Notes: generated by a model from the letters alone, not told the origin. A DNA stretch of 39,977 nt from Candidatus Woesearchaeota archaeon (GCA_964555925.1 CAZKUJ010000002.1:1-39977), one strand, 5' to 3'. Positions 23,352 to 38,518 are shown, numbered from the stretch's first letter. Numbers and translations are program-made.

Positions 23352-24206
23352 TTATTTTGTATACCTTTTTTTATGAACAGCCAAATATCTTTTTATAAAA
23401 TAATCAACAAAGGCTTCTTGACCCTTAGGAAAAGCATTATAATAAGATCTTCTTTTTTTGTATTCAATAATAAGCATAGGATAACCAGCATGCCAAAGAA
23501 TATAATTCATCAATAATCTTCCAATTCTCCCATTCCCATCTCCAAAAGGGTGAATGCTCTCAAATTTGTAATGTGTTCTTGCAGCTAGCTCTACAGGATT
23601 AAGTTTTGATTTATTAGAAAATTCAATAATTTGATTCATCGTAGTTTTAATCTTAGTCCAAGGGGGAGCAACATAACTTCCAACTCGTACAAGATAATTT
23701 CTATATTTTCCAGCAATATCTTGTTTTGTTTCACCAAAAATTTCTTTATGCCATTTTAATAACAATTCATTACTAATCTTCCCTTTTTTCTTTAACATTT
23801 CTAAAAATACTTTATTATGCATTTCTGTTTCTTTTATATCTCTAATTGGTTTATTTGGAGCTATTTTATCTTGAATTATTTCTCTTACTTCATGTAAAGT
23901 TATTATAGACCCCTCAATAGCATTAGAGTTATATGTAAATGCGATAGATATTTCTTCAAGTTCTTTCTCTTTAGCACTTTTAGGAATTTTTTTCCATTCG
24001 TTCTGGAAATTTCTCCTTATCTCTTCCAGTTTTTTATAGAGATTAATCTTTAATTCCCTGCTGAATTCTTCTTTTATCTTATCAATGTTTTTTGGAATTG
24101 AAGTGCCAAGATATTTTTCTTTTTTTACTATCTTATTTCCTTTTCTTATGCTGTGCCCTAAATAATAATATGCCTTTTTACCTTTGGTTTTCTTTCTTAT
24201 AATCAT
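23352..24206 (-). CDS. Fic-domain protein (AMPylase family), class II-type with intramolecular inhibitory motif
   Basis: It carries the canonical Fic motif HPFGDGNGRIGR. Upstream, SNAIEG matches the (S/T)xxxE(G/N) inhibitory helix. The track ORF (to 24296) runs into the tRNA, so I place the start at the ATG at 24206 (MIIRKKTKGKKAYYYLG), which has a TATA-like ATATATAAATA about 25 nt upstream. Confidence 0.85.
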   Translation of the reverse strand: MIIRKKTKGKKAYYYLGHSIRKGNKIVKKEKYLGTSIPKNIDKIKEEFSRELKINLYKKLEEIRRNFQNEWKKIPKSAKEKELEEISIAFTYNSNAIEGSIITLHEVREIIQDKIAPNKPIRDIKETEMHNKVFLEMLKKKGKISNELLLKWHKEIFGETKQDIAGKYRNYLVRVGSYVAPPWTKIKTTMNQIIEFSNKSKLNPVELAARTHYKFESIHPFGDGNGRIGRLLMNYILWHAGYPMLIIEYKKRRSYYNAFPKGQEAFVDYFIKRYLAVHKKRYTK

Positions 24207-24266
24207 AGAATAATATACCCCTACATATTTATATATTTTTCTATTTTCATTTAAGATGTAGGGATA

Positions 24267-24420
24267 CGCCCCGACCGGGATTCGAACCCGGGTCACGGCC
24301 GGACTTCACGTAGTTTAGCGTTGTCGTTTGAATCAGAAATTCTTGCGAATTTCTTCAGCAATCGTTGGTTTGCACCATCGCTTGAAAGGGCCGCATTCTT
24401 GGCCACTGAACTATCGGGGC
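24267..24420 (-). tRNA. tRNA-Glu (anticodon UUC) with 81-nt intron
   Basis: Acceptor GCCCCGA/TCGGGGC, D arm GTTC..GAAT, anticodon stem CGGCC/GGCCG with loop C-T-TTC-A, T arm CCGGG-TTCGAAT-CCCGG, discriminator G. The intron is at 37/38 and is paralogous to the intron of the gene at 492-641. Confidence 0.85.
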
Positions 24421-24765: not shown

Positions 24766-24843
24766 TTATATTTTTAAATTAGTTATGTTTTTAAGCTTTT
24801 TGCGAAAAACCCTTATTATGAAATTCTATCGAATAATAATTAA

Positions 24844-24853
24844 TTTTATAAAA
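24844..24853 (+). promoter_or_regulatory. Array promoter copy 1 (TATA-like TTTTATAAAA, 30 nt upstream of the ATG)
   Basis: Part of the conserved ...(t)aattaatTTTTATAAA... block repeated upstream of every array gene. The spacing to the ATG implies a leaderless or very short-leader mRNA. Confidence 0.6.
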
Positions 24854-24873
24854 TCTATTTTATTAAGATATTA

Positions 24874-26517
24874 ATGAAAAAGAGTTTGATTTGTTTGCTA
24901 ATTTTTGTTTTTATATTATTTTTATTTCCGACGATTAATGCGGCGACAATTAATGCAAATTCTTGTTCTTTAGAAGATGTTCAGAAAGCAATCGATGCTG
25001 CAGAACCTGGAGATGTAGTTAGAGTTCCTGCTGGAAACTGTGTGTGGGGCACTGGAAGAAGGACCATAGACAGTGGTTTTTATGTTTATCCTTCTTTAGC
25101 AATTAATAAGTCTCTTGCTTTAATAGGTGAAGGAATCAATAAAACAAACATAACATGCACACATAACCAGAGTGCGATTATATACAAACCAGCAAACTTT
25201 TCTGCTAATGATCCTTTTAGAATTTCAGGATTTACTTTTGATTTTGATGACCAGTGCACAGGTATTAGGCTTTCATACAGTTATACTGATTTGACTATTC
25301 AAACAAAAATAAGAATAGACCACAATCACTTTAAAGATTCTGCTAGTCAGGCATTAACTATAAACGGTTACCGCGGAGTTGCTGACCACAATATATTCAC
25401 AGGCACCGATTATCCAATTCGATTCGCATCTGGAGATGACCATGACTGGTGGCAAAATTGGGAAGGAATTGTTTTTGGCAAGGCTGACAACAATTTTTAT
25501 TTTGAAGACAATATAATTGAGGCTTATGATGCAATGGTGGATTGTCAGTATGGAAACAGATATGCGTTTCGATACAATACTATTAGAGCATTAGGTCCAG
25601 CGTCATACCCACTTATGGACATGCATGGTGATGTAGGAACTGAAAGCGGCGGATGTGCTTATAGGTCATGTTTTGGCTCAGAAATATATGGAAATCACAT
25701 ATCACTTAATTCTGGTTATGCTGATTTTAGGGGCGGAAAACATGCTATCTTCTATAACTATATTTCTAAAACAGGAAATTTCTGGGGATTGCGTGATTCA
25801 GAGGGCGTATCATTAGGATGGGAAGCATGTGATTGTGTTTATTGTGATACTGATAACCCGCAGCCGCAGCATATTAGTGATAGCTATTCATGGAATAACC
25901 GCGGGAGTTCTTTGACAGGACCAATCTCTAACTTTTATAGCCGTGGCTTCGCGGATTGTGTGGAGAAATGTGGCTATATCGTAAATGAGAACGACGAGTT
26001 TTTCAATTTCAATCCTTCCTTTGATGGAACATCAGGCGTTGGATGCGATACTTTATCTGAAAGACCAGGCACATGCACTTTTGGTGTGGGTTATTGGGCA
26101 ACAGCTCAAAGCTGTTCTGATTTAACTGGATTTGTAGGGGCTAATCATACTAACATCATATCAGGCACACTTTACAAATGTACTTCTCCTAATACTTGGA
26201 CTGTTTATTACACACCTTACATCTATCCTCATCCACTTTCTGTCGCTCCATCTGGAACAAATATTTGTGATGAAGGAAAGATAATTTCAGAATGCTGGTG
26301 CGAAGGATTGAAATCTGTTGGTTATTGTTATAATGGATATTATTCTACAGAAGAAGGGGAGAGAATTATTCCACCACCTGCAGAAGAAGAGCAACCCTCT
26401 TTAGGTGGAGTTGCCACACTTCAAGACATGCTCAACTCTTATCAAAGATATAAAAGAAATGAGGTAAGTTTACTTTATTTCTTAGATAAATTGAGAAGCT
26501 GGATTATTTTCAGATAG
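24874..26517 (+). CDS. Array member 1: secreted right-handed beta-helix-like (pectin-lyase-fold-like) protein with conserved Cys-knot and C-terminal tail
   Basis: Signal peptide MKKSLICLLIFVFILFLFPTINA. N-cap ATINANSCSLEDVQKAIDAAEPGDVVRVPAGNCVW. Rung-like motifs IDHNHF, ADHNIF, FEDNII, FRYNTI, IYGNHI, FYNYI. 3' cassette from 26206: YYTPYIYPHPL, ICDEGKIISECWCEGLKSVGYCYNGYY, PPPAEEEQPSLG and the tail VATLQDMLNSYQRYKRNEVSLLYFLDKLRSWIIFR. Confidence 0.8.
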   Translation: MKKSLICLLIFVFILFLFPTINAATINANSCSLEDVQKAIDAAEPGDVVRVPAGNCVWGTGRRTIDSGFYVYPSLAINKSLALIGEGINKTNITCTHNQSAIIYKPANFSANDPFRISGFTFDFDDQCTGIRLSYSYTDLTIQTKIRIDHNHFKDSASQALTINGYRGVADHNIFTGTDYPIRFASGDDHDWWQNWEGIVFGKADNNFYFEDNIIEAYDAMVDCQYGNRYAFRYNTIRALGPASYPLMDMHGDVGTESGGCAYRSCFGSEIYGNHISLNSGYADFRGGKHAIFYNYISKTGNFWGLRDSEGVSLGWEACDCVYCDTDNPQPQHISDSYSWNNRGSSLTGPISNFYSRGFADCVEKCGYIVNENDEFFNFNPSFDGTSGVGCDTLSERPGTCTFGVGYWATAQSCSDLTGFVGANHTNIISGTLYKCTSPNTWTVYYTPYIYPHPLSVAPSGTNICDEGKIISECWCEGLKSVGYCYNGYYSTEEGERIIPPPAEEEQPSLGGVATLQDMLNSYQRYKRNEVSLLYFLDKLRSWIIFR

Positions 26518-26526
26518 TTTAATTAA

Positions 26527-26535
26527 TTTTATAAG
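26527..26535 (+). promoter_or_regulatory. Array promoter copy 2 (TTTTATAAG, 30 nt upstream of the ATG at 26557)
   Basis: Same conserved block (tttaattaattttataag). Confidence 0.55.
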
Positions 26536-26556
26536 TTCTGTTTTATTATGATATTA

Positions 26557-27822
26557 ATGAAAAAGAGTTTGATTTTACTATTTATTCTCGTTATTTTTTT
26601 ATTTCCGATTGTTACTACAGCTACTATCAATGCACCAAGTTGCTCGCAAACAGATGTGAGAGCTTTTGAATATACTCTAAAAGATATTCCTTCTGAAAAT
26701 TTAGCAGGAAGAATATTAAGTCAAATTGTCACAATCCAAGATATGTTAAATGCATATCAAGAATATAAACAAAATGAAGTGAGTATTTTATATTTTTTAG
26801 AAAAACTCAGGAGCTGGATTGTTTTTGACCTCCCTTCAGAAGAGATTATTTGTACAGCACATAATTATTCAAATTGTTCTAACGGAGATGTTTATTGGTA
26901 CGACAGTTGCAATGTGAAAGAAGAAATAAGATATGATTGTAATTCAACACAGACCTGTATTAATGGAGTTTGTGCAAACAATCTAATTTCTAACATCTCA
27001 ACAGAAGCAATAATTGTTGATTATACTTCTGCAGCAAGTTTTCAAAATATTCCTCAAGAATGGATAGAAAAAGCTAAAACAGATTTGCATATTGCTTATG
27101 GTCATACCTCTCATGGTAGCCAACTTATAACAGGTATGAATATGCTGGTTTCTGAAAAAGGTTTTCTTTATTCTTGGAATAATGGAGGAACCAATGGTGC
27201 TCTTGATATTAGAGATTATGCTAGTAATTTTGGGGGTTTGGGGATAGCTAATGATTTGGGAAATCCGAATTATACTGCATGGGCAACTGCTACTCGCATT
27301 TATCTAAATCAAAATCCAGATATAAATGTCATTATTTGGGCTTGGTGTTATCAAATGAATACAATCGAGGAGAACATAAATACTTATCTTAATTTGATGC
27401 ATCAACTTGAATTAGACTTTCCAAATGTTAGATTTGTTTATATGACAGGACATGTGACAGCAGGACAATTGTTATGCACAGATCCAACTCGGTGGGCTTG
27501 CGTGCATAATCTTCGTACTACACAAATACGTAATTTTGTCAATGCCAATAATGGTACTCTTTATGATTTTGCTGATATAGAAAGTTATGACCCAGATGGC
27601 AATTGGTATGCAGATAAATTAGTAACTGATAATTGCGATTATGATAGTAACAATGATGGTGTTGTTGATAGTAATTGGGCTATAAATTGGTGTAATTCTA
27701 ATTATTGTGTTCCTTGCTCTAGTAGTTGTGCCCACTCGCAATGCCTTAATTGTTATCTTAAAGGAGAAGCTGCGTGGTGGCTTTGGGCAAGATTGGCTGG
27801 TTGGAATGGAATATCTACTTAA
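26557..27822 (+). CDS. Array member 2 (chimeric): family signal peptide, N-cap stub and internal tail module fused to a Cys-rich domain and an unclassified domain
   Basis: MKKSLILLFILVIFLFPIVTTATINAPSCSQTDV is followed directly by IVTIQDMLNAYQEYKQNEVSILYFLEKLRSWIVF (nt 26728-26826). This reads through (DLPSEE...) into CTAHNYSNCSNGDVYWYDSCNVKEEIRYDCNSTQTCINGVC and a domain of about 290 aa (HIAYGHTSHGSQ, IIWAWCYQMN, FVYMTGH, YDFADIES). The track start at 26548 (MIL-) arises from a point variant (tatg versus taag in its paralogues). Confidence 0.75.
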   Translation: MKKSLILLFILVIFLFPIVTTATINAPSCSQTDVRAFEYTLKDIPSENLAGRILSQIVTIQDMLNAYQEYKQNEVSILYFLEKLRSWIVFDLPSEEIICTAHNYSNCSNGDVYWYDSCNVKEEIRYDCNSTQTCINGVCANNLISNISTEAIIVDYTSAASFQNIPQEWIEKAKTDLHIAYGHTSHGSQLITGMNMLVSEKGFLYSWNNGGTNGALDIRDYASNFGGLGIANDLGNPNYTAWATATRIYLNQNPDINVIIWAWCYQMNTIEENINTYLNLMHQLELDFPNVRFVYMTGHVTAGQLLCTDPTRWACVHNLRTTQIRNFVNANNGTLYDFADIESYDPDGNWYADKLVTDNCDYDSNNDGVVDSNWAINWCNSNYCVPCSSSCAHSQCLNCYLKGEAAWWLWARLAGWNGIST

Positions 27823-27840
27823 ATAAAACAATTTAATTAA

Positions 27841-27850
27841 TTTTATAAAA
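27841..27850 (+). promoter_or_regulatory. Array promoter copy 3 (TTTTATAAAA, 30 nt upstream of the ATG at 27871)
   Basis: Same conserved block (atttaattaattttataaaatctattttatta). Confidence 0.6.
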
Positions 27851-27870
27851 TCTATTTTATTATGATATTA

Positions 27871-29364
27871 ATGAAAAAGAGTTTGATTTGTTTGATTATT
27901 TCTATATTTCTTTTGCTTCCAATTATTAGTGCTGCGACAATTAATGCACCAAGTTGTTCGCAGACTGATGTGCAGGCAGCTGCAAATGCAGCACAAGATG
28001 GAGATACTGTGCTCGTGCCTGCGGGAACTTGCACATGGTTTACATTAACTTCTAATGCGCCCGCACTTTTTATAGATAAGAAGAACATTATTCTTAATGG
28101 TGCAGGAATTGGAAAAACAATAATAATAGATGAAACTAGTGATGCAATCGGAACAAAATATGGAGAACACCTTATTACTGTAGAAGGAGTGGCTGGAAAG
28201 CCATTTAGAATAACCGGTTTTACGTTGAGAAGATATACCATAGGCGATACAGATTCGAGTTTTATCAATATTAGAGGTAGTGCAATGAATTGGAGAGTTG
28301 ATCATAACGAATTTATAACTTCTACATCGTTCGGAAGCCCCGATACTTGTGTCGGAACAAGTGGATTTACTTATGGACTTATAGATAATAATTTGTTTAG
28401 AGGTATGGGTAGAGTTGTAATTATGGGTGATGCAGATGCTTCCTGGAAAAGACCCTTAACTCTTGGAACTTCCAATGCAGTTTATATAGAAAATAATCAA
28501 TATAACAACTCACTTAATGGAACTTATATAATGAGTAATGCAGTTGATTCTAATAATGGGGGCAGATATGTTTTTAGGCACAATGATTGTGATGGAGGAT
28601 ATGTAGAAGCCCATGGTTCCCAATGGGGAAGAGGAACATTTAGCTATGAAGTTTATGAAAATGTAATCAGAGATTCTCCTGTAATTTGGGTTCCTTTTAG
28701 TTTTAGAGGAGGAACAGGAGTGATATTTAACAATACAGCTTATAATTTTTTATGGGGAGCAGACAGAATAAATATTTATTATGATAGGGCTTGTGGACCA
28801 TCTGGTTTAGAATGCGCTTGTGATGGTACATGCTATATTGACGGTAATCAAGAGAGCACTGGTTGGCCTTGTAGAGACCAACTTGGCAGATCAACTGATT
28901 ATGGTGTGGATTCTGTACACCCTCAAACTCATGAACCTGCTTATGAATGGAATAATACAAATTATATTAATGGCGTACCAAGTGATATCGATTTTATTCC
29001 TCATTCTGGTTGTGAAAGAAATGCTATACTGCTTAAGAGAGATATAGATTATTTTAATAACACAATCAGAGCAGATTATATACCTTACATCTATCCTCAT
29101 CCCCTTTCTGTTGCTCCATCTGGAACAGATATTTGTGGCGAAGGTGAAATAACAAATGAGTGCTGGTGCGAAGGATTGAAATCTGTGGGTTATTGTTATA
29201 ATGGATATTATTCTACAGAAGAAGGAGATAGAATTATTGAGCCTCCTGTCGAGCAATTTGTCACAATCCAAGAAATGCTAAATGCCTATCAAAATTACAA
29301 AAGAAATGAAGTTAGCATTTTGTATTTCTTAGACAAATTAAGAAACTGGATTGTGTTTTGGTAA
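27871..29364 (+). CDS. Array member 3: secreted beta-helix-like protein with conserved 3' cassette
   Basis: MKKSLICLIISIFLLLPIISAATINAPSCSQTDVQAAANAAQDGDTVLVPAGTCTW. Rungs VDHNEF, IDNNLF, IENNQY, FRHNDC, VYENVI, FNNTAY. DYIPYIYPHPLSVAPSGTDICGEGEITNECWCEGLKSVGYCYNGYY. Tail VTIQEMLNAYQNYKRNEVSILYFLDKLRNWIVFW. Confidence 0.8.
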   Translation: MKKSLICLIISIFLLLPIISAATINAPSCSQTDVQAAANAAQDGDTVLVPAGTCTWFTLTSNAPALFIDKKNIILNGAGIGKTIIIDETSDAIGTKYGEHLITVEGVAGKPFRITGFTLRRYTIGDTDSSFINIRGSAMNWRVDHNEFITSTSFGSPDTCVGTSGFTYGLIDNNLFRGMGRVVIMGDADASWKRPLTLGTSNAVYIENNQYNNSLNGTYIMSNAVDSNNGGRYVFRHNDCDGGYVEAHGSQWGRGTFSYEVYENVIRDSPVIWVPFSFRGGTGVIFNNTAYNFLWGADRINIYYDRACGPSGLECACDGTCYIDGNQESTGWPCRDQLGRSTDYGVDSVHPQTHEPAYEWNNTNYINGVPSDIDFIPHSGCERNAILLKRDIDYFNNTIRADYIPYIYPHPLSVAPSGTDICGEGEITNECWCEGLKSVGYCYNGYYSTEEGDRIIEPPVEQFVTIQEMLNAYQNYKRNEVSILYFLDKLRNWIVFW

Positions 29365-29373
29365 TTCAATTAA

Positions 29374-29383
29374 TTTTATAAAA
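29374..29383 (+). promoter_or_regulatory. Array promoter copy 4 (TTTTATAAAA, 30 nt upstream of the ATG)
   Basis: Same conserved block (ttcaattaattttataaaattgattttattaagatatta). Confidence 0.6.
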
Positions 29384-29403
29384 TTGATTTTATTAAGATA
29401 TTA

Positions 29404-31137
29404 ATGAAAAAGAGTTTGATTTGTTTGATTATTTCTATATTTCTTTTGCTTCCAATTATTAGTGCTGCGACAATTAATGCACCAAGCTGTTCTTATTCAG
29501 ATGTTTCAGCAGCTGTTAATATAGCTAATTACGGCGATACTATTTTAGTTCCAGCTGGAACTTGTGTGTGGGATAAGATACTTACAATTACAAAAGGAAT
29601 AACTCTCCAAGGTGCAGGCATAGATAAAACAATAATTAAAAGCGATGGACCAAGTGGCACAGGTGTTTACACAATAGAATTTAATGCAGATCAAACAACA
29701 GCCACAAACGATTATCCTTTTCACTTGTCTGGTTTTACGTTTCAGCAAATATCTTCTTTGTATGGGAGCTTAGAATTAACAAATCAAGATATCACAAAAG
29801 CATTAACAAAAGTTGTAATTCACGACAATAAATTTATTGGCAGAACCGGTAGTGGCATTGGAATAGTTCATAATCATGGTGTTTTTGGAGTGATTTACAA
29901 TAATACAATCCAGGATGTATCACATGCCTGGCGCTTCCTCGGAGGACCTACTGGTTGGAATCAGGTTGAAGAATGGGTGCCTGGAACTGGTAATGCAATG
30001 TATTACGAAAACAATTATATTTATCTAACAGATGATTATTCCTCATCTCTAATAGTCAGTGGTGGGGCTGGAAATAGATATGTTGCCAGGTATAACACGA
30101 TTAATCTGTCAAAGCGAGGGTCTACTGTTTTTGCGCAATCATATGATATACATGGAAATCAAGAGAATAATCCTACAGGTGGAATTGGTCTTGAATTGTA
30201 TGGAAACCATCGCATTGGTACAAATGGTAGGTGGATAGATCATCGTGGTGGGCAAGTGTTTTTCTTTTTCAACAGGTGGAGTGGCAGTAGTGGGACTGGG
30301 TCTTTGAATATATGGGAAGAATATAACGACGACAATTTCATGGTAGTTTTCTGTCCTGAGGGGACTCGTTATGGCAGAACTGCTGACGGAAATTGCATTC
30401 AACGCCCCCGTGAATCATATTATTGGAGAAATTATGGTGGAGTTAATGGAATCACGCTTTCGAACACATTGAATATTCTATTTGATCATTATAACAGAGC
30501 TAACGGCATATTGAATGATCCATTTCTTCTGTTTGAAAATGATGGATGGTTTAGAGATAATACTCGTGCCTTTGATGGTACAATAGACGGGGTGGGCTCG
30601 TGCGGTTATTACAATGGAAATGCATGTACCAAAAGTGGAGTTGGCTGCGGAACTTTAGCGGAAATGAACGCAATAACACCCACTGCTTCTGGTCTTGGTT
30701 TTTGGGTGACAAACCAAAGCTGTACAGATTTAACAAGAATGACTGGCAGAAATCCAACTGTTCCGCTTTTTGGAACTCTGTATAGAGCTGAAAAAAACAG
30801 CGTTGGTAATTATGAATGGGTCGCGTATTACACGCCTTACATCTATCCACATCCACTTTCTGTTGCTCCATCTGGAACAAATATTTGTGGCGAAGGTGAA
30901 ATAACAAATGAGTGCTGGTGTGAAGGATTGAAAACAATTGGTTATTGTTATAATGGATATTATTATTCAGAAGAAGGGGAGAGAATTATTCCACCACCTG
31001 CAGAAGAAGAGCAACCCTCTTTAGGTGGAGTTGCCACACTTCAAGACATGCTCAACTCTTATCAAAGATATAAAAGAAATGAGGTAAGTTTACTTTATTT
31101 CTTAGATAAATTGAGAAGCTGGATTATCTTCAGATAG
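29404..31137 (+). CDS. Array member 4: secreted beta-helix-like protein with conserved 3' cassette
   Basis: The first 83 nt are identical to member 3. Rungs IHDNKF, IYNNTI, YENNYI, ARYNTI, LYGNHR, FFNRW. The 3' cassette from 30826 is a chimera of a member-7-like tract and a member-1-like tract. Confidence 0.8.
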   Translation: MKKSLICLIISIFLLLPIISAATINAPSCSYSDVSAAVNIANYGDTILVPAGTCVWDKILTITKGITLQGAGIDKTIIKSDGPSGTGVYTIEFNADQTTATNDYPFHLSGFTFQQISSLYGSLELTNQDITKALTKVVIHDNKFIGRTGSGIGIVHNHGVFGVIYNNTIQDVSHAWRFLGGPTGWNQVEEWVPGTGNAMYYENNYIYLTDDYSSSLIVSGGAGNRYVARYNTINLSKRGSTVFAQSYDIHGNQENNPTGGIGLELYGNHRIGTNGRWIDHRGGQVFFFFNRWSGSSGTGSLNIWEEYNDDNFMVVFCPEGTRYGRTADGNCIQRPRESYYWRNYGGVNGITLSNTLNILFDHYNRANGILNDPFLLFENDGWFRDNTRAFDGTIDGVGSCGYYNGNACTKSGVGCGTLAEMNAITPTASGLGFWVTNQSCTDLTRMTGRNPTVPLFGTLYRAEKNSVGNYEWVAYYTPYIYPHPLSVAPSGTNICGEGEITNECWCEGLKTIGYCYNGYYYSEEGERIIPPPAEEEQPSLGGVATLQDMLNSYQRYKRNEVSLLYFLDKLRSWIIFR

Positions 31138-31146
31138 TTTAATTAA

Positions 31147-31156
31147 TTTTATAAAA
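31147..31156 (+). promoter_or_regulatory. Array promoter copy 5 (TTTTATAAAA, 30 nt upstream of the ATG)
   Basis: tttaattaattttataaaatatgttttcttggaatagaa. The downstream half is shared with copy 8. Confidence 0.6.
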
Positions 31157-31176
31157 TATGTTTTCTTGGAATAGAA

Positions 31177-32985
31177 ATGAAAAAGAGTTTTTTTGTTTGG
31201 ATTATATTGCTTTTTTTGATATTACCTCTTGTCAAAGCAGCAACCATCAACGCAAATTCATGCAACCTGGCAGATATTCAGAATGCTATTAATAGCGCAA
31301 GTTCTGGAGACACAATCATGGTGCCTGCGGGAAACTGCATATGGACTAGCACTCTTACGATTACCAAAGGCATTGCTCTTATCGGTGCAGGGGTGGGAAA
31401 AACCATCATTGATAAAACTACGAGTGGCGATATAATCAGTTACACCCTCCAAGAGCCCTTGGTCTATTCATCTTTTAGACTTTCAGGAATAGAATTTAAT
31501 CTGAACAACATAGCTTCAGGCCCCTATATTGACAATCCATCCCCTTATCATGAGCCAAGAATTCGCATAGACCATAATTATTTCTTAAACTGCGCAGGCC
31601 ATTCATGGAGATTGCAAGGCCAGGTTTATGGGGTGGTAGATAATAATCTTTTCACTGGAAACGCTTGGCAGCGCAGATATGGCAGTAATTCAATAAGTTG
31701 GAACAATATAGCTTATTCTTATGGTGGCGAAAAAAATTTATATGTGGAAGATAACATCATAGTCCAGAGCAAGTATGACGGATTGAACCAGTTAGGATTG
31801 GGATCTATACTTGTAGAGCGTTATAATACAATAAATTATACGAACCCGACTAGCAGTAGCAATTTTTATCCTTGGGATTCCCACGGAAATCAGGACTGGA
31901 ACTCAAACGATGCAGCTATGGGCAGAGAAATTTATGGCAACAAGATTGATGCTAATAATAAGAATGTCAAGCTCTTCTACCATCGTGGGGGCATGGCCCT
32001 GCTTTTCTGGAATAAGATAGTAAATTCCGGCTCGACATGGATAACTTTACAGGAAGAATGTGATGATTGCTCTTATGGCCATACGTGTGCTATTTGCAAC
32101 CCAAAACCAGCATGTAGCCCAAATGAGCAGCCTCAGCATGTTAGTGATTCTTATTATTGGAACAACAGATTTGGAAAGACCGGAACATCATTGGTTGTTG
32201 ACATAAGTTTGTCCAACTCGGATTCTGATTGTTCAGTGCGTAATTATTTAATCGCAGAAGACGTGGATGTTTTCTGGAATAAGGTGCCTTTTACTGGCAG
32301 TTCAGGAGTTGGATGTGGTACTTTGGCTAATAGACCTTCTACTTGTAATGTTGGTGTTGGATATTGGGCAACAGAACAAGATTGTTCTGGACTCGATGAC
32401 AAGAATGTAGGCGCAAATCCAACCGAGCCAATAACAGGGGTGCTTTATAAGTGTGGAAGCAACAATAATTGGATACCTTATTACACACCTTTTGTATATC
32501 CACACCCAATAAGGACAGATTGTGTCAGTTATCCTCTTCTTTGCGATTCTGATTTATCTTCTCCTTTTATTGATACAACTTCACCAATAAGGACTTCAGG
32601 ATATCCAACTGGGAATTTAAGTTCAGGAACAACTTCAATAACAATTGGATTAATAACAAATGAGGTAGCAACATGCAGATATTCAACAGCACCAGGAGTT
32701 TCTTATAGTTCAATGACAAATACTTTTTCAACAACAGGTTCAACAAGTCATTCAACATTAATAACAGGATTACAAAACGGAAACACTTACAATTATTATG
32801 TAAAATGCATTGATTCTTCTGAAAATGCAAATATCAATGATTATTTGATTAGTTTTAGTGTTTCTCCAACACCAAAAATAATTACCCTTCAGAATATGCT
32901 GAATGCATATCAAGAATACAAAAGAAATGAAGTTAGTATTCTGTATTTTTTGGATAAATTAAAAAATTGGATTGTGTTTTGGTAG
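31177..32985 (+). CDS. Array member 5: secreted beta-helix-like protein with an Ig/Fn3-like module in place of the Cys-knot, plus the family tail
   Basis: MKKSFFVWIILLFLILPLVKAATINANSCNLADIQNAINSASSGDTIMVPAGNCIW. Rungs IDHNYF, VDNNLF, VEDNII, VERYNTI, IYGNKI, FWNKI. YYTPFVYPHPIR is followed by about 115 aa of S/T-rich beta-sandwich-like sequence (ATCRYSTAPGVSYSSMTNTFSTTGSTSHSTLITGLQNGNTYNYYVKCIDSSENAN), then the tail ITLQNMLNAYQEYKRNEVSILYFLDKLKNWIVFW. Confidence 0.8.
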   Translation: MKKSFFVWIILLFLILPLVKAATINANSCNLADIQNAINSASSGDTIMVPAGNCIWTSTLTITKGIALIGAGVGKTIIDKTTSGDIISYTLQEPLVYSSFRLSGIEFNLNNIASGPYIDNPSPYHEPRIRIDHNYFLNCAGHSWRLQGQVYGVVDNNLFTGNAWQRRYGSNSISWNNIAYSYGGEKNLYVEDNIIVQSKYDGLNQLGLGSILVERYNTINYTNPTSSSNFYPWDSHGNQDWNSNDAAMGREIYGNKIDANNKNVKLFYHRGGMALLFWNKIVNSGSTWITLQEECDDCSYGHTCAICNPKPACSPNEQPQHVSDSYYWNNRFGKTGTSLVVDISLSNSDSDCSVRNYLIAEDVDVFWNKVPFTGSSGVGCGTLANRPSTCNVGVGYWATEQDCSGLDDKNVGANPTEPITGVLYKCGSNNNWIPYYTPFVYPHPIRTDCVSYPLLCDSDLSSPFIDTTSPIRTSGYPTGNLSSGTTSITIGLITNEVATCRYSTAPGVSYSSMTNTFSTTGSTSHSTLITGLQNGNTYNYYVKCIDSSENANINDYLISFSVSPTPKIITLQNMLNAYQEYKRNEVSILYFLDKLKNWIVFW

Positions 32986-32994
32986 CTTAATTAA

Positions 32995-33004
32995 TTTTAT
33001 AAAC
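32995..33004 (+). promoter_or_regulatory. Array promoter copy 6 (TTTTATAAAC, 31 nt upstream of the ATG at 33026)
   Basis: The same gcttaattaattttataaa block drives the non-family gene embedded in the array. Confidence 0.55.
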
Positions 33005-33025
33005 TAAAATATCTTATCATAATGA

Positions 33026-34393
33026 ATGGATTATAAAGAGGGAAATAGGAAAGACGACGAAATTTTGAATTGGCATAGCAACAGAATTTCTTCTCACACA
33101 AGGAAATTGATTTTATTCTCTGTAATTATTTTTATTTTTTTGGCTGTTATTTTATCTTTTATTATTATACGTTATTATGATTATTCTTCAAGTCCTGAAA
33201 AAGAATTAGGTCTTGGAGCAAACATTTTAAATGCAGAATTAAATGAAGAAGAAAATAGTATCTATATTGCTTTAGAAGGAGGAAGTAAAGATAAAGAGAT
33301 TTCAGGTATTCGTTTTAATTTTGGAGATGACCAAGGAAAAACTTTTTCTTATTACACCACAGAAGGTGCAAACAATATTTCCTTGGATTATGAAATTTCC
33401 TTTTTAAGTTCATTGTTTAAAAAGCAGAAATTTAATGGTTTTTATGATTATGTGATTACTGCAGATGATTTAGGTTTATCCAGCTTAGGGGGTATTATAA
33501 GAGTTAGTGTGGAATTTATCTATAAAACTTTTGATGCAGGTGGGGGAAGCGTGGAGAAACCAACGCCTCTTTTAGATACAACTTCTGTTACAACCTCTTC
33601 TGGAGGTGGCGGAGGAAGTTCTTCTACAACAGATGAAGGCACAACAGAACCAACCACAACTATTTTTAATGAAACAGAAGAAACATTAGAATACGTTTAC
33701 ATTAATTTCTCTTCAGATAATAAACAATATTTTGAGATAAAAAATAATCTTTATTTTATTTTAGATATCTCAAATGAATCTGTGTCTAGTTTTGATTTTT
33801 ATGTTAATAGTAGTCAACAGCCACAAATATCTGTCACTAATGCAACAATTAGAATAAATGATTCCAGTAGTAGCACGCTTCTTCTAAAACTTCATAGACC
33901 AACCATCACTAATGTTAGCATATATAATACAAGTCAAACAAATATTTGGAGAGGAACTTTTAACTTCTCTTCTCCTTCAAACACACTTCTTTATTCAATT
34001 TACAATCTTAGTAGTTATCTTGATCAACCAATTAGTCAATATGTTTCAGGAAGCAATTCTTGTTATGGAATTTATACTTTCTATAACACTTCCTCAGTTG
34101 TCATGATGTGTGCATTAATGGACACAAGCACCCTAAGCTATACAATTCCCTCTGGAACTAATGTTAAAAATTATATCACAAGAGTAATTCCTGGAGGAGC
34201 AACTTATAGTGTAACAAACAATGATTCTTCAGATAATTACTTAAGTTCTTCAAATGGAGTTCTTAATTTTACTTCTTCAAGTGGAAATGTAAGTATATCT
34301 CTGGTTTCACAACCATCTATTACCGGGGGAGTTATTGGAGCATTAAAAAGAGATTTTTCTTCAATTATAAATTGGTTTAAGGAAATCTTTTAG
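33026..34393 (+). CDS. Embedded non-family gene: N-terminally anchored, sequon-rich (likely N-glycosylated) pilin-like surface protein
   Basis: 455 aa with a TM anchor (LILFSVIIFIFLAVILSFIII). A post-anchor module SIYIALEGGSKDKEISGIRFNFGDDQGKTFSYY resembles EVKVDVRRSPGGGDLIGIKFIFLDDSGSSH of the pilin-like gene at 10030. It has a linker TSSGGGGGSSSTTDEGTTEPTTT and at least 15 N-x-S/T sequons in the C-terminal half. Confidence 0.7.
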   Translation: MDYKEGNRKDDEILNWHSNRISSHTRKLILFSVIIFIFLAVILSFIIIRYYDYSSSPEKELGLGANILNAELNEEENSIYIALEGGSKDKEISGIRFNFGDDQGKTFSYYTTEGANNISLDYEISFLSSLFKKQKFNGFYDYVITADDLGLSSLGGIIRVSVEFIYKTFDAGGGSVEKPTPLLDTTSVTTSSGGGGGSSSTTDEGTTEPTTTIFNETEETLEYVYINFSSDNKQYFEIKNNLYFILDISNESVSSFDFYVNSSQQPQISVTNATIRINDSSSSTLLLKLHRPTITNVSIYNTSQTNIWRGTFNFSSPSNTLLYSIYNLSSYLDQPISQYVSGSNSCYGIYTFYNTSSVVMMCALMDTSTLSYTIPSGTNVKNYITRVIPGGATYSVTNNDSSDNYLSSSNGVLNFTSSSGNVSISLVSQPSITGGVIGALKRDFSSIINWFKEIF

Positions 34394-34401
34394 ATAATTA
34401 A

Positions 34402-34411
34402 TTTTATAAAA
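34402..34411 (+). promoter_or_regulatory. Array promoter copy 7 (TTTTATAAAA, 30 nt upstream of the ATG)
   Basis: ataattaattttataaaatctattttattaagatatta is nearly identical to copies 1 and 3. Confidence 0.6.
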
Positions 34412-34431
34412 TCTATTTTATTAAGATATTA

Positions 34432-35994
34432 ATGAAAAAGAGTTTGATTTGTTTGATTATTTCTATATTTCTTTTGCTTCCAATTATTAGTGCTACGACA
34501 ATTAATGCACCAAGTTGTTCGCAGACTGATGTGCAAGCTGCAGTTAATGCAGCGCAAGATGGAGATACTATTCTTGTGCCTGTAGGCGCGTGCACATGGA
34601 CAACAGTAGTAACTATTGATTTGTATTCTCCTGCTAAAGCTCTGACAATAAAAGGCGCTGGCATTGGGTTGACTAATATTACTGATTATGGTTTTGATGT
34701 GAAAGGAGGAGATGGCAAGCCTTGGCGCATAAATGGTATGACTATGAAGGGAAGCGCAGGCTTTTTCGTAGAAGGCGCATCAAAGAATTGGAGGATTGAC
34801 TACATCTACTTTGATCATGTGACAGGCAAAGCAAGTGCTTCTAATCGTATAATCTGGGTACAGGCATCAGGCACCCCTTCTGATTATAATAGTGGCGTTA
34901 TTGACCATTGTACTTTTGACAATGCCAATAACATAGTTAATATTCATGTCAGGGATGTTAGAGGAGGTAATACTGTTTGGAATAGGCCTCTTGGCCTTGG
35001 AGGAAGTGATGCGGTTTATATTGAGGACTGTAATTTTATTCATGTTCCAATGGCGCTTTCAGATGTTGATTGTGAAAGCGGTAGCTATGTATTCAGGCAC
35101 AACACAGTAAGAAATGGTAACTTAGGTATGCACGATGCAATCATCGGTGGCTTGCGAGGGTGCAAGAAATGGGAGATTTATGACAACCTCTTTATTAATG
35201 ATCCTGGCACAGGCCTTTGCGGTAACTTCGGCTTGAGAGGAGGAAATGGTGTTGTGTTCAATAATGTAGCCCAGGGAAGGCCTGACTGCAATGACGGCAT
35301 CTGGATTCAAACCTATAGGACAACTCAGCTCGGAGGAGACCCTTGGGATGTTCTCTGCGGCAGTTCATCAGGAATAAAAGCCTGCCTGGGCTCAGACAAC
35401 ACTTATCCACGACGCTGCACTTCTGATGCTGATTGTGGAGGCATTACTGGCTCTTGCATTGACATTGACAATTCTAGCAACCCCACAGGATATCCTTGCA
35501 GAGACCAATTGGGCTGGGAAGGAAACTTGATAAGGACATTGCGCCCAGTATTGTTTTGGAACAACACAATAGATGGAGCCTATGCTGTCCCCGTAGTTGT
35601 CAGAGGCCCAGAATATGTCATGAATGGAAGGGAATATTGCTATGGACCAACCATGCCAACTTCTTGCGGCGGAGTCGCCACAACTTATGTGCCTTATCCC
35701 TATCCTCATCCATTAAGTGTTGCGCAATTTGGAACAGATATTTGTGGCGAAGGAGAAATAACAAAAGAATGCTGGTGTGAAGGATTGAAATCTGTTGGTT
35801 ATTGTTATCATGGATATTATTATTCAGAAGAAGGGGAGAGAATTATTCCACCACCTGCAGAAGAAGAGCAACCTCCTTTAGGTGAAATTGTAACAATTCA
35901 AAACATGCTTAATGCTTATCAAAGATATAAAAGAAATGAAGTTAGTATTCTGTATTTCTTAGACAAATTAAGAAACTGGATTATTTTTAGATAG
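34432..35994 (+). CDS. Array member 6: secreted beta-helix-like protein with conserved 3' cassette
   Basis: MKKSLICLIISIFLLLPIISATTINAPSCSQTDVQAAVNAAQDGDTILVPVGACTW. Rungs IDYIYF, IDHCTF, IEDCNF, FRHNTV, IYDNLF, FNNVAQ. TTYVPYPYPHPLSVAQFGTDICGEGEITKECWCEGLKSVGYCYHGYY. Tail VTIQNMLNAYQRYKRNEVSILYFLDKLRNWIIFR. Confidence 0.8.
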   Translation: MKKSLICLIISIFLLLPIISATTINAPSCSQTDVQAAVNAAQDGDTILVPVGACTWTTVVTIDLYSPAKALTIKGAGIGLTNITDYGFDVKGGDGKPWRINGMTMKGSAGFFVEGASKNWRIDYIYFDHVTGKASASNRIIWVQASGTPSDYNSGVIDHCTFDNANNIVNIHVRDVRGGNTVWNRPLGLGGSDAVYIEDCNFIHVPMALSDVDCESGSYVFRHNTVRNGNLGMHDAIIGGLRGCKKWEIYDNLFINDPGTGLCGNFGLRGGNGVVFNNVAQGRPDCNDGIWIQTYRTTQLGGDPWDVLCGSSSGIKACLGSDNTYPRRCTSDADCGGITGSCIDIDNSSNPTGYPCRDQLGWEGNLIRTLRPVLFWNNTIDGAYAVPVVVRGPEYVMNGREYCYGPTMPTSCGGVATTYVPYPYPHPLSVAQFGTDICGEGEITKECWCEGLKSVGYCYHGYYYSEEGERIIPPPAEEEQPPLGEIVTIQNMLNAYQRYKRNEVSILYFLDKLRNWIIFR

Positions 35995-36003
35995 TTTAAT
36001 TAA

Positions 36004-36013
36004 TTTTATAAAT
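36004..36013 (+). promoter_or_regulatory. Array promoter copy 8 (TTTTATAAAT, 30 nt upstream of the ATG)
   Basis: tttaattaattttataaattatgttttcttggaatagaa; same subtype as copy 5. Confidence 0.6.
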
Positions 36014-36033
36014 TATGTTTTCTTGGAATAGAA

Positions 36034-37761
36034 ATGAAGAAGAGTTTGATTTGCTTGATGATTTATATATTTCTTTTGCTTCCAATTATTAGTGCTGCGA
36101 CAATTAATGCACCAAGTTGTTCGCAGACTGATGTGCAAGCTGCTATTGATAGTTCATCTTATGGTGACACAGTATTAGTTCCTGCTGGGAGTGCAACATG
36201 GATTACTAAGGCACAGGGATGTTCTGGCGATACTGCACTGTGTATTAAAAAAGGCATTAATCTTAAGGGGGGCATAGGTGGAGAGACAAGCATCTCTCTT
36301 TCTGGTTTAGCACCTTACGGAGCTATCTACTATGAACCTGATTCCACATCAATAAGTAATAATACTCCGTTTGAGTTTACAGGATTCACCATAAATGCAA
36401 ATAAAATCACATATCAAGAAGGGGTATTGGATGTTAGCAATTCAGGAACCACCCCCATTACTAAAGTAAGAATCCACGATAATACTTTTAAGAATGAACT
36501 TGCGGAGACAATTCAAATAAACGGCCCGGTATACGGCGTGGCTTATTCTAATTCCTTTATAGACTGCCAAACTGTTATAAGGACGGCGGGAGGCGATGGC
36601 AGGTCTTGGAATCTGAACCAAAGGGAATATGGCACTAGAAATAATTTTTTCTTTGAAGACAACACGGCAATCGCAACCACTGCCAAATCAACTGGTGCGT
36701 TCACGGCTGGCCAGGGCGGAAGCATTGTAATTAGGTATAACACCTATGATTTGGGACAGCTCTTGTTAGATGGAAACCAATGGCAAGACCTTCATGGACT
36801 GCAGAGCATGACAACTATTGATGGTAATGTGCAATGTGGTTACGCTCCATATAATGTTCCTAATTCTTGCCTACCTGAAGTAAAGTCTTGTGAGCAGTGG
36901 TCACAAATTAAATCAGAGTGGTATGGGAATATTCATACAAACTTTCGTAATCCATATAGCACAGCCCAAGAATGGATGCGTCTACGTGGAAGTTGGATGT
37001 TGATGTTTAATAATGTCATAACAGGAACAGGAATTATGCCATTACCTGATATTTATCAGTATTCTTGTGATAGCTGCCAGAGTGGCACTGGGCTAAGATA
37101 TTCCATGCATGTTCAGAATACGTATGTTTGGAATAATGTTGGGAATGGAGTTAACAGACCAATTTATGTCCTTCAGGACAATTGTGGAAGTTATGCTGTA
37201 GGCACTCCTTACACGATTACAGAAAATGTTGACTATTGGAACTATAATTCAAATATTCTTGACGGAAATACTCAAAAAGGAATAAATTGTGGGAGTTCTC
37301 CACCTACAGGCAGCTGTTCAATAGGAGATGGTTATTGGCAAACTTCGTATTCTCCCTGTTCAATGCCCCCTGCTGTCATGGCAGATATGAAAACCTATAC
37401 TCAAACAGGAAAGTTCTATAAATGCACTGCACCAAACACCTGGACAGAATATTACCAACCTTACATTTATCCACATCCATTAAGAGTTGCTCCATCTGGA
37501 ACAGATATTTGTGGCGAAGGTGAAATAACAAATGAGTGCTGGTGTGAAGGATTGAAAACAATTGGTTATTGTTATAATGGATATTATTATTCAGAAGAAG
37601 GGGAGAGAATTATTCCACCACCTGCAGAAGAAGAGCAACCCTCTTTAGGTGAAATTGTAACAATTCAAAATATGCTTAATGCTTATCAAAGATACAAAAC
37701 AAATGAAGTCACTCTTTCATATTTTTTGGATAAATTAAAAAATTGGATTGTGTTTTGGTAA
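36034..37761 (+). CDS. Array member 7: secreted beta-helix-like protein with conserved 3' cassette
   Basis: MKKSLICLMIYIFLLLPIISAATINAPSCSQTDVQAAIDSSSYGDTVLVPAGSATW. Rungs IHDNTF, YSNSF, FEDNTA, IRYNTY, WYGNIH, FNNVI. YYQPYIYPHPLRVAPSGTDICGEGEITNECWCEGLKTIGYCYNGYY. Tail VTIQNMLNAYQRYKTNEVTLSYFLDKLKNWIVFW. Confidence 0.8.
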   Translation: MKKSLICLMIYIFLLLPIISAATINAPSCSQTDVQAAIDSSSYGDTVLVPAGSATWITKAQGCSGDTALCIKKGINLKGGIGGETSISLSGLAPYGAIYYEPDSTSISNNTPFEFTGFTINANKITYQEGVLDVSNSGTTPITKVRIHDNTFKNELAETIQINGPVYGVAYSNSFIDCQTVIRTAGGDGRSWNLNQREYGTRNNFFFEDNTAIATTAKSTGAFTAGQGGSIVIRYNTYDLGQLLLDGNQWQDLHGLQSMTTIDGNVQCGYAPYNVPNSCLPEVKSCEQWSQIKSEWYGNIHTNFRNPYSTAQEWMRLRGSWMLMFNNVITGTGIMPLPDIYQYSCDSCQSGTGLRYSMHVQNTYVWNNVGNGVNRPIYVLQDNCGSYAVGTPYTITENVDYWNYNSNILDGNTQKGINCGSSPPTGSCSIGDGYWQTSYSPCSMPPAVMADMKTYTQTGKFYKCTAPNTWTEYYQPYIYPHPLRVAPSGTDICGEGEITNECWCEGLKTIGYCYNGYYYSEEGERIIPPPAEEEQPSLGEIVTIQNMLNAYQRYKTNEVTLSYFLDKLKNWIVFW

Positions 37762-37794
37762 TTCTTAGTTATATTCTGCATTACTTTTATAAAA

Positions 37795-37925
37795 TGAGCC
37801 TGCTCGGATTTGAACCGAGGACCCCTGCCTCTCTTAGATAAAAATTTCATTCCAAGAGATATTCAATTCTTGTGAATTGTTTTCTTATAAGAGCAGTGCT
37901 CTGGACCAGGCTGAGCTACAGGCTC
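37795..37925 (-). tRNA. tRNA-Ile (anticodon UAU) with 55-nt intron
   Basis: Acceptor GAGCCTG/CAGGCTC, D arm GCTC..GAGC, anticodon stem CTGCT/GGCAG (one G-U pair) with loop C-T-TAT-A, variable GGGTC, T arm CTCGG-TTCAAAT-CCGAG, discriminator A. The intron is at 37/38. Confidence 0.8.
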
Positions 37926-38045
37926 ATTTTATTCGCCTTCACTAGTTTCCTTTTCTTCTTAAGGAATTTAGGAAAGAGCTACAGGCTTCTTAATTTAATT
38001 TGTTTCTGGTGTATTAAAATTTATCTAGAATAGATTATTTTGCAA

Positions 38046-38237
38046 TTAATTTTTGGAGGGAAATAAAGCTTTTAACATCTTCCTTAAATTTTCATCAAGA
38101 AAACATATATCTTCTGCAGCAATTTTTTCTATGAATTTTGTTAAAGCACCGCGACCAGTGAACCCTGTGTCATCTGCTTTTTGCATTAATTTCTTTTTTG
38201 TTTCAAAATTAAGATATATTTTAATCGGTTGCTTCAT
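38046..38237 (-). CDS. Ribbon-helix-helix (CopG/Arc-like) DNA-binding protein
   Basis: 63 aa. A beta-strand (IKIYLNFE), helix (TKKKLMQKADDTG) and helix (GALTKFIEKIA) give the layout typical of RHH regulators. It is divergent from the large ORF at 38519. Confidence 0.55.
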   Translation of the reverse strand: MKQPIKIYLNFETKKKLMQKADDTGFTGRGALTKFIEKIAAEDICFLDENLRKMLKALFPSKN

Positions 38238-38518
38238 TTTCCCCTTTTTTGATTGAATTTTTTTGTAAAAATTAGTGCTATTTCAAAAAGTCCCTAATTT
38301 TTAACTGATAAATTAAGGATTTTTGCTTTTATAAATTTTACTTACGTGTGTTTTTAGGAAATTTTATCGTCGAGAAAATTAATTATCTTTTTTACCTTAC
38401 GCATTAAAAATGTAAGATAACAGATAAAAACGAAAAAAGCCCTAATAGGCCTAAAAAATCTTAGTTCAGGCCCTAATTAGTTCCTAATATTTATGATTTA
38501 TTTTTGGTATTTATTTCT

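Follow-up and report, generated by a model that had tools for sequence, protein, structure and literature searches.

How can neighbouring genes whose central parts have diverged to saturation carry ends that are almost identical at the nucleotide level? This question is raised by a tandem gene array at positions 24,874 to 37,761 of a 39,977-nt stretch of DNA from a Candidatus Woesearchaeota archaeon (GCA_964555925.1 CAZKUJ010000002.1:1-39977), which was analysed as a whole and is called the window here. The array consists of eight head-to-tail open reading frames (ORFs) on the + strand between two tRNA genes; seven of them (m1 to m7) belong to one family and one (X) is unrelated. A sequence-only reading of the window had attributed the shared ends to recent gene conversion among the array members. 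In this study, we found that this attribution holds, and we propose short-tract gene conversion with occasional unequal crossover between the blocks at the gene junctions, resulting in concerted evolution of the constant ends, a reading to which we assign a probability of about 0.85.

The eight genes are listed below, where L001, L002, L003, L092 and L094 are contigs of other samples that reproduce a member.

24874-26517, + strand: m1, 547 aa; signal peptide, beta-helix core and 3' cassette (ORF and cassette alignment; L092)
26557-27822, + strand: m2, 421 aa from the MKK start; 5' cassette and unrelated catalytic part, without the 3' cassette
27871-29364, + strand: m3, 497 aa (ORF and cassette alignments; L001, L094)
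29404-31137, + strand: m4, 577 aa; clearest mosaic 3' cassette, ortholog K_B in a related archaeon (L007)
31177-32985, + strand: m5, 602 aa; beta-sandwich-like insert after the core, 3' cassette reduced to the two-helix tail
33026-34393, + strand: X, unrelated membrane-anchored orphan inside the array, with neither cassette
34432-35994, + strand: m6, 520 aa (L001)
36034-37761, + strand: m7, 575 aa; structure modelled (L001, L002, L003)

Each of the seven family members is a complete ORF that begins with an ATG, encodes a signal peptide and is preceded by the same TATA-like element; for m3, the longest ORF runs from 27862 and the MKK ATG stands at 27871. The gene plan has three parts, namely a common 5' cassette (promoter, signal peptide and N-cap), a diverged beta-helix core and a common 3' cassette, which encodes a YIYPHPL motif, a Cys-rich mini-domain, an acidic Pro-rich linker and a two-helix tail. 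At each junction, the 3' cassette of one gene, a 38-nt spacer and the 5' cassette of the next gene form one homology block of ~350-550 nt, and unrelated cores of ~1.2-1.4 kb lie between these junction blocks.

Shared tracts and partner switching in the cassettes

The principal tracts shared between members are the following.

26348-26534, + strand: tract (a), m1 copy, extending 17 nt beyond the stop codon
30862-31154, + strand: mosaic zone of m4, with 30862-31027 m7-like and 30968-31154 m1-like
37486-37651, + strand: tract (b), m7 copy (global p=0.0012 with m4)
27834-27974, + strand: tract (c), m3 promoter and 5' cassette (direct comparison, alignment and tests)
34395-34535, + strand: tract (c), m6 copy (direct comparison)

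Direct comparison reproduced every tract of the sequence-only reading. Tract (a) joins m1 to 30968-31154 of m4 over 187 nt with one mismatch (26508 T / 31128 C) and an exact run of 160 nt, and tract (b) joins 30862-31027 of m4 to m7 over 166 nt, again with one mismatch (30880 A / 37504 G) and an exact run of 147 nt. Tract (c), between m3 and m6, covers 141 nt with two mismatches (27863 and 27934). If m3 is taken to start at its MKK ATG, it agrees with m4 at every one of the first 83 nt (tract d); the exact match extends to 90 nt (27864-27953 = 29397-29486), begins 7 nt 5' of the ATG and lies inside the m3 copy of tract (c). The tracts cross stop codons into the intergenic promoter region.

Shorter matches had been claimed at the 3' ends of m3, m5, m6 and m7, and all of them are exact: in the m5 tail (tract e), 32920-32948 equals 35929-35957 of m6 (29 nt) and 32944-32984 equals 37720-37760 of m7 (41 nt), and between m3 and m6 (tract f), 29321-29352 equals 35951-35982 (32 nt). 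Their weight differs. By a rough analytic calculation with ~80% background identity, the 41-nt m5-m7 run is significant (0.71^41 x 100 ~1e-4), but the 29-nt m5/m6 run (0.81^29 x ~110 starts ~0.2) and the 32-nt m3/m6 run (0.8^32 x ~300 starts ~0.2) are not individually significant and carry no weight alone.

Partner switching was visible directly when the 3' cassettes (five full copies) and the 5' cassettes (all seven) were aligned. The m4 cassette changes over ~350 nt from m1/m3-like to m7-like and then to m1-like, as had been noted in part, and is followed by a spacer like that downstream of m6 (31155-31176, just past the mosaic zone, matches the spacer 3' of m6). The family member P0121, encoded on a 654-nt ENA contig of another population, has a tail that is m7-like at RVAP, m6-like through EIVTIQNMLNAYQRYKRNEV and m1/m4-like in SLLYFLDKLRSWIIFR; segment types of the window thus also occur in other combinations elsewhere.

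Mosaicism was assessed with a pairwise homoplasy index (PHI) test using 2,000 site permutations and with a GENECONV-like test of the longest run of concordant polymorphic sites, for which 5,000 permutations were made and p values were corrected globally across pairs, both in our own implementations. In the alignment of the 3' cassettes of m1, m3, m4, m6 and m7 (117 polymorphic sites, 53 informative), mosaicism was significant by PHI at window sizes of 5, 10 and 20 (p<0.0005 each), and in the run test the pairs m1-m4, with 43 consecutive sites, and m4-m7 reached global p values of <0.0002 and 0.0012, respectively. The 5' cassettes were also mosaic by PHI, at p<0.0005 with windows of 5 and 10 sites and at p=0.0165 with windows of 20, and the run test singled out m3-m4 (global p 0.005), m3-m7 (0.0075) and m4-m6 (0.0135).

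The ages of cores and ends differ sharply. The cores are too diverged for recent duplication, as had been argued from the sequence, with 30-45% amino acid identity, a saturated proportion of synonymous differences (pS 0.68-0.85) and a nonsynonymous divergence (dN) of 0.7-1.1. In the first 36 codons of m3, m4, m6 and m7, the synonymous divergence (dS) is 0-0.35, with 0 synonymous differences between m3 and m6; cassette dN is likewise low (0.01-0.24), and the tracts hold 0-2 differences over 141-187 nt, stop codons and spacers included. At the protein level, m3, m4, m6 and m7 are 80-95% identical in their first 40 residues, and the C-terminal cassettes of m1, m3, m4, m6 and m7 are 77-92% identical. 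Because silent differences in the tracts are close to zero and the tracts extend into the spacer, constraint at the protein level was ruled out as the cause.

Comparison with orthologs separates the two histories further. A related archaeon (L007), ~81% identical at the nucleotide level in flanking syntenic genes, carries an array at the same place, whose second gene, K_B, is the ortholog of m4. The cores of m4 and K_B are 74% identical in amino acids, and the first 40 residues of m4 are only 60% identical to K_B versus 80-88% to m3, m6 and m7; the m4 C cassette is 92% identical to that of m1 versus 77% to that of K_B. Ends thus group with their genome and cores with their ortholog, the signature of concerted evolution. 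Cassettes within related arrays are 60-93% alike (L007, 77-79%; a second related archaeal array, L095, 61-88%; a bacterial array, L004, 60-93%), and no long identical tracts were found in the cassettes of these three arrays, so the window tracts are recent, lineage-specific events.

The L095 array (L095:6461-14702) belongs to the related archaeon and is its second array, at another locus; it contains P0148, the m2 ortholog P0132, P0123, an X ortholog and P0133. Family members that form one array in the window are therefore split over two loci in that archaeon. A gene of the RecA/Rad51 family (RadA/B-like; L095:15227-15988) lies two genes 3' of this array.

A deletion allele adds unequal crossover to the picture. 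A contig of a further sample (L011) agrees exactly with m1 as far as 26357, continues from 29188 as an exact copy of the m3 3' cassette and then enters m4.

26320-26357, + strand: 38-nt crossover interval, identical to 29188-29225 in m3; junction of L011

The junction is flanked by an m1-specific T at 26319 and then by the m3-specific GGAGATAG, and the hybrid lacks 2,868 bp, comprising the m1 tail, m2 and the m3 core. Unequal crossover between the m1 and m3 cassettes would give this allele, and the L011 contig supports such an event. A simple assembly-graph chimera is less likely here because the 38-nt repeat is far below the assembler k of 141.

Gene conversion and its rivals

Mosaicism, near-zero silent differences, tracts running through stop codons, ends more alike between paralogs than between orthologs and reproduction in other assemblies together bear out recent intragenomic gene conversion. 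Our data support two extensions of that claim, namely that unequal crossover also takes place and that the recombining unit is the whole junction block. We propose the following model for the process. As the genes are arranged head to tail, each junction would act as one homology block. Misaligned blocks would pair, and conversion without crossover would copy stretches of ~40-190 nt and so produce the partner-switching mosaic; occasional resolution as an unequal crossover would delete or add whole genes. The cores would be too diverged to pair, so that tracts would end at core borders, and coding and promoter sequence would be transferred together within a junction block. The expected outcome would be homogenised export and anchoring ends alongside very different cores that are kept in the long term. 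We infer RadA-type enzymology as well as the direction of individual events.

Several points weigh against this reading. The recombination tests were self-implemented and the alignments small (5-7 sequences), and for the 5' cassette the longest-run values may be inflated by a gradient of conservation, to which PHI is less sensitive. Donor and recipient are not rigorously assignable. No recombination gene lies in the window; the RadA/B-like gene was seen only in the relative's L095. The array evidence comes from short-read assemblies, unphased by long reads, and L011 is a single 3.1-kb contig that could be chimeric. L001, the only other assembly of the m4 3' end, differs from the window at 30981 (A) and 31017-18 (TC), and the exact m4 protein of the window is not on record elsewhere; the extreme identity in the overlap of tracts (a) and (b) could partly stem from the assembler choosing the better-covered m1 or m7 path.

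The alternative that survives best is core replacement, in which new cores, some of them horizontally acquired, would have been brought in by double crossover between old end handles, leaving the mosaic ends as scars; it could act alongside conversion. Array content does turn over, as the first gene of the syntenic L007 array has a core only 34% identical to that of m1, and in relatives the same cores occur joined within one ORF, with the same spacer between them. The m7 core (window 36160-37485) is 73% identical in amino acids and ~72% in nucleotides to a Parcubacteria gene (P0003, L004:10001-11539); the likeness runs from ~residue 44 to YPHPLR, and both ends of m7 are of the array type instead. 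The P0003 gene sits in a seven-gene tandem array (L004) with its own shared signal peptide and the C-terminal motif GExDTxxPxxPSGLxV. This close bacterial counterpart, together with an array GC content of 0.34-0.43 versus a genome background of ~0.30 and a bacterial locus at 0.43 throughout, suggests inter-domain transfer of at least the m7 core. Orthology of the whole array with the Parcubacteria array was rejected, as m7 is the sole member with a close counterpart and m4 and m3 are only 33% and 25% identical. These two members also speak against core replacement. Furthermore, the partner switches lie inside the cassettes and link paralogs of the same genome at 99-100% identity, which import would not give, and the same core with different ends was not found in two strains, the L011 deletion excepted. 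Core replacement is thus unlikely to have made the mosaic, although it may contribute to the turnover of array content.

An assembly artefact would mean that short-read collapse or chimerism of the cassettes produced tracts and switches that exist in no single genome. Contigs of other samples do break inside the cassettes: L001 starts at 26399, a contig of a third sample (L092) ends 146 nt into m2 and L094 holds m3 alone. Such breaks are expected because the repeats are near the k-mer size, and the exact runs of 147-160 nt exceed the k of 141. The array structure was nevertheless reproduced in short-read assemblies of other samples, one of them from a different pipeline. L001, a MEGAHIT contig, matches the window over 26399-39977 (13,579 nt) with four differences; in the m6-m7 region, L002 shows no difference from the window and L003, which comes from a Joint Genome Institute (JGI) assembly, shows one; and L092 is identical to the window over the 469 nt of 26195-26663, which take in the m1 3' cassette, the spacer and the first part of m2, so that the m1, m6 and m7 copies recur. 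Collapse cannot create tracts that are absent from the reads, mis-joins alter gene order and not tract content, and the assembly passed through the 5' cassette tracts (c) and (d), both of them below k in length.

The differences that L001 shows in m4 deserve attention, as all three fall in the 60-nt overlap of tracts (a) and (b). With the L001 bases, these tracts have four mismatches each and exact runs of 109 and 100 nt, and the same mosaic persists (m7-like, m1-like and then the spacer found downstream of m6). The TC at 31017-18 is the m6 allele. Either two alleles coexist, one of them with a further micro-conversion, or the assembler chose a path through a bubble. The assembly artefact, which had been named as what would refute the reading, is therefore largely excluded for the pattern as a whole and not for these three bases of m4. 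The mosaic pattern is very unlikely to be an artefact, though the last few per mille of its identity may be, and as an account of the locus this alternative is highly improbable. For population variation, the evidence consists only of look-ups by exact protein; JGI metagenome contigs were scanned for two exact patterns, one from the hybrid or parental junction and one a 47-mer of the shared cassette, and neither scan gave a match.

Purifying selection alone, acting on the signal peptide, the anchor module and the promoter in the absence of recombination, has in its favour that the ends encode functional elements, that 20 positions of the tail motif do not vary among the seven copies and that cassette dN is low. 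Selection would leave silent and intergenic differences, which are missing between m3 and m6 (0 synonymous) and along the 160 exact nucleotides of m1 and m4 while the cores are saturated; it does not account for the incompatible histories that PHI detects along the cassettes, nor for orthologous ends being less alike than paralogous ones, and we give it hardly any credence. Just as implausible is recent whole-gene duplication with very fast core divergence or hypermutation, for example by a diversity-generating retroelement: constant ends around a variable middle superficially resemble hypervariable surface genes, but the cores are old (74% for m4/K_B and 73% for m7/P0003, far above the 30-45% of neighbouring cores), domain searches of the window ORFs of 300 aa or more turned up no reverse transcriptase, and the tract mismatches (T/C, A/G, T/A and G/A) are not adenine-specific. 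Silent-cassette antigenic variation was ruled out, as every member is a complete gene, and site-specific inversion does not fit, as all members lie on the + strand and no recombinase-family domain was found among the scanned ORFs, with no search made for inverted repeats.

The encoded proteins and their shared elements

The AlphaFold2 model of m7 (predicted local distance difference test score, pLDDT, 87.9) shows a right-handed beta-helix at residues ~23-480, followed by a low-confidence cassette that ends in two helices. In Foldseek, this model matched alginate lyase 6kfn, AlgE4 epimerase 2pyg, chondroitinase B 1ofm, PL6 lyases and phage tailspikes (E 6e-5 to 1e-3). The cores, as far as modelled, thus appear to be secreted right-handed beta-helix proteins resembling polysaccharide lyases or depolymerases. 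In Pfam and NCBIfam, all beta-helix N-cap matches of the eight array proteins were below threshold (PF12708, 22 bits with a cut-off of 27; TIGR03805, 17-24 with a cut-off of 141). The insert of m5 (32600-32860, residues ~486-547) gave a weak match to Pur_ac_phosph_N (E 0.0024), and an insert of this kind between core and tail also occurs in the C-terminal part of P0148 of the related archaeon.

The 3' cassette is narrowly distributed. A profile search with it found only 33 clusters among 1.84 billion representatives, with other core types among the carriers (P0133, P0136 and P0148 bear the cassette module on other cores), and only three candidates came up when proteins were searched by word index for the 102-aa C cassette. 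The top repeat-rich match of the profile search, P0124, was discarded as an unrelated repetitive protein. In m2, the tail module (26704-26838, with a repeat-family copy at 26723-26862) follows directly after the signal peptide and precedes the unrelated Cys-rich, catalytic-looking domain, and the m2 ortholog of the relative (P0132) has the same layout. Because m2 and P0132 carry the module in this position, it should work at either end of a protein.

Relatives carry at the tail position either a canonical dockerin (P0002, PF00404 above threshold) or a two-helix tail with one EF-hand-like loop, and the close core homologs P0002, P0010 and P0128 have a canonical dockerin exactly where the window proteins have their tail. 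By hhalign, the window tail is linked to the two-helix tails (89% probability, E 2e-6) and these to the first dockerin repeat (65%, E 6e-5). A direct hhalign comparison of window tails with dockerins showed no link, and PF00404 matched none of the members; with these two negative results and the lack of Ca-binding loops, the tail was not assigned as a dockerin. The low-confidence AlphaFold2 model of the C cassette (pLDDT 67) found no match in Foldseek, and no cohesin domain was found among the window ORFs scanned. Judging from its position, the diversity of its carriers and these profile links, the tail is probably a docking or anchoring module that stands in the place of a dockerin.

The relatives P0002, P0010 and P0128 are single ORFs with two tandem beta-helix cores, the shared YIYPHPL and Cys-rich spacer between the cores and a canonical dockerin at the end. 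As the gene borders of the window coincide with domain borders in these fused proteins, gene fission or fusion at junction blocks would explain the difference.

The X protein combines a transmembrane helix at its N terminus with a linker rich in Ser, Thr and Gly. It had no Pfam match and only one homolog by word-indexed search, and it is 78% identical in amino acids to an array-embedded gene of the related archaeon (L095:11495-12871). X thus counts as a conserved component of the array and is a candidate surface partner for the tail module.

The spacers between the genes hold a recurrent element.

24836-24873, + strand: promoter-like spacer of m1, with TTTATAAA at ~-29 to -22 from the ATG

This spacer element recurs 5' of each other member, at 26519, 27833, 29366, 31139, 34394 and 35996. 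From its position and sequence, TTTATAAA is probably an archaeal TATA box, and the transcripts would be leaderless or nearly so. Two types of spacer and leader were seen. Type 1, ending in ATGTTTTCTTGGAATAGAA before the ATG, is common to m5 (31139-31176) and m7 (35996-36033), and type 2, ending in TCTATTTTATTAAGATATTA, precedes m1 (24836-24873), m3 (27833-27870), m4 (29366-29403, with TTGA replacing TCTA) and m6 (34394-34431), with m2 having a variant of type 2. The two types may mark two regulatory classes.

Known systems and genomic setting

Concerted evolution and gene conversion are familiar from the tuf and rRNA genes and from the thermosome subunit genes of euryarchaea. A survey of these processes between prokaryotic paralogs found mostly key members of important pathways (PMC6053082). 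As in those cases, paralogs within the genome are more alike than orthologs between genomes, through homologous recombination between copies. Unlike them, the window array homogenises only the gene ends and the intergenic promoter, with cores at 30-45% identity, and its genes encode secreted enzymes in a genome-reduced DPANN host.

In Helicobacter pylori, the babA, babB and hop paralogs have conserved 5' and 3' ends and undergo segmental gene conversion. The window array resembles this family in encoding surface or secreted proteins with constant ends and a variable middle and in short-tract conversion that leads to chimeric genes. The H. pylori copies, however, are dispersed and exchange functional middles in phase and antigenic variation, whereas the window copies are tandem and exchange constant ends, with no expression switching evident. 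Neisseria pilE/pilS, Borrelia vlsE and Anaplasma msp2 combine one expression site with promoterless partial cassettes from which variable segments move. These systems share with the window array conversion among tandem, partly homologous units and conserved flanks that guide recombination; in contrast, the window members are complete genes, each preceded by a promoter-like element of its own and encoding a signal peptide, and it is the constant segments that move. The array also resembles the dockerin-bearing cellulosomal enzymes (PF00404), in which diverse secreted carbohydrate-active cores have a common short C-terminal module, but the window tail differs from dockerins in lacking Ca-binding loops. 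For the mucin-associated surface protein (MASP) multigene family of Trypanosoma cruzi, recombination among members has been proposed (PMC2691823). MASP is eukaryotic, with hundreds of copies, a glycosylphosphatidylinositol (GPI) anchor signal and a repetitive centre, whereas the window has seven copies with beta-helix cores and a two-helix tail.

The process is therefore a well-known one, segmental gene conversion with concerted evolution of constant ends, here in a DPANN archaeon. Literature searches turned up no description of gene conversion in arrays of surface or secreted genes of DPANN archaea. The genomes of DPANN archaea are tiny and these archaea rely on other cells, so that their secreted and surface proteins form the interface with hosts and substrates. 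The locus indicates that homologous recombination in such an archaeon is active enough to homogenise stretches of ~150 nt and to delete genes in a natural population, and it shows one export and anchoring system kept alongside very different enzyme cores. It offers a case, testable with reads, for tract lengths and rates of conversion in an uncultured archaeon. The cross-domain relative of m7, the narrowly distributed and uncharacterised tail module and the conserved, embedded X are further leads. More speculatively, and with rather long odds against the idea as a whole, the junction blocks (docking tail, promoter and signal peptide) might serve as a portable recombination chassis for plugging in, deleting and reshuffling depolymerase cores, including cores shared with the candidate phyla radiation (CPR). 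The enzymes would then be kept on one export route and one surface receptor, perhaps X, in a display for host or environmental glycans like a miniature cellulosome.

The window is a piece of an archaeal chromosome with a GC content of ~30%. Among its genes are the alpha and beta subunits of phenylalanyl-tRNA synthetase (PheRS), a class I tRNA synthetase of the Trp/Tyr type (tRNA-synt_1b) and a phosphoenolpyruvate (PEP) synthase, the last being 66-74% identical to genes of metagenome-assembled genomes (MAGs) labelled Pacearchaeota, Woesearchaeota or Nanoarchaeota. Because of this resemblance, the host is, on the evidence of its genes, placed as a DPANN archaeon similar to Pacearchaeota or Woesearchaeota and without a close reference genome; a core-alignment scan of GTDB genomes gave no confirmed match.

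Two tRNA genes bound the array.

24267-24420, - strand: intron-containing tRNA gene, upstream flank of the array (Rfam)
37795-37925, - strand: intron-containing tRNA gene, downstream flank of the array (Rfam)

By Rfam, four of the five tRNA genes of the window are intron-bearing. These four (492-641, 1130-1259, 24267-24420 and 37795-37925, all on the - strand) are 130-154 nt long and apparently contain introns; Rfam finds them and ARAGORN misses them, its single call in the window being tRNA-Thr at 2820-2896. The tRNA gene at 24267-24420 overlaps the start of a Fic/DOC ORF (23352-24296), whose GTG start was probably called too far upstream.

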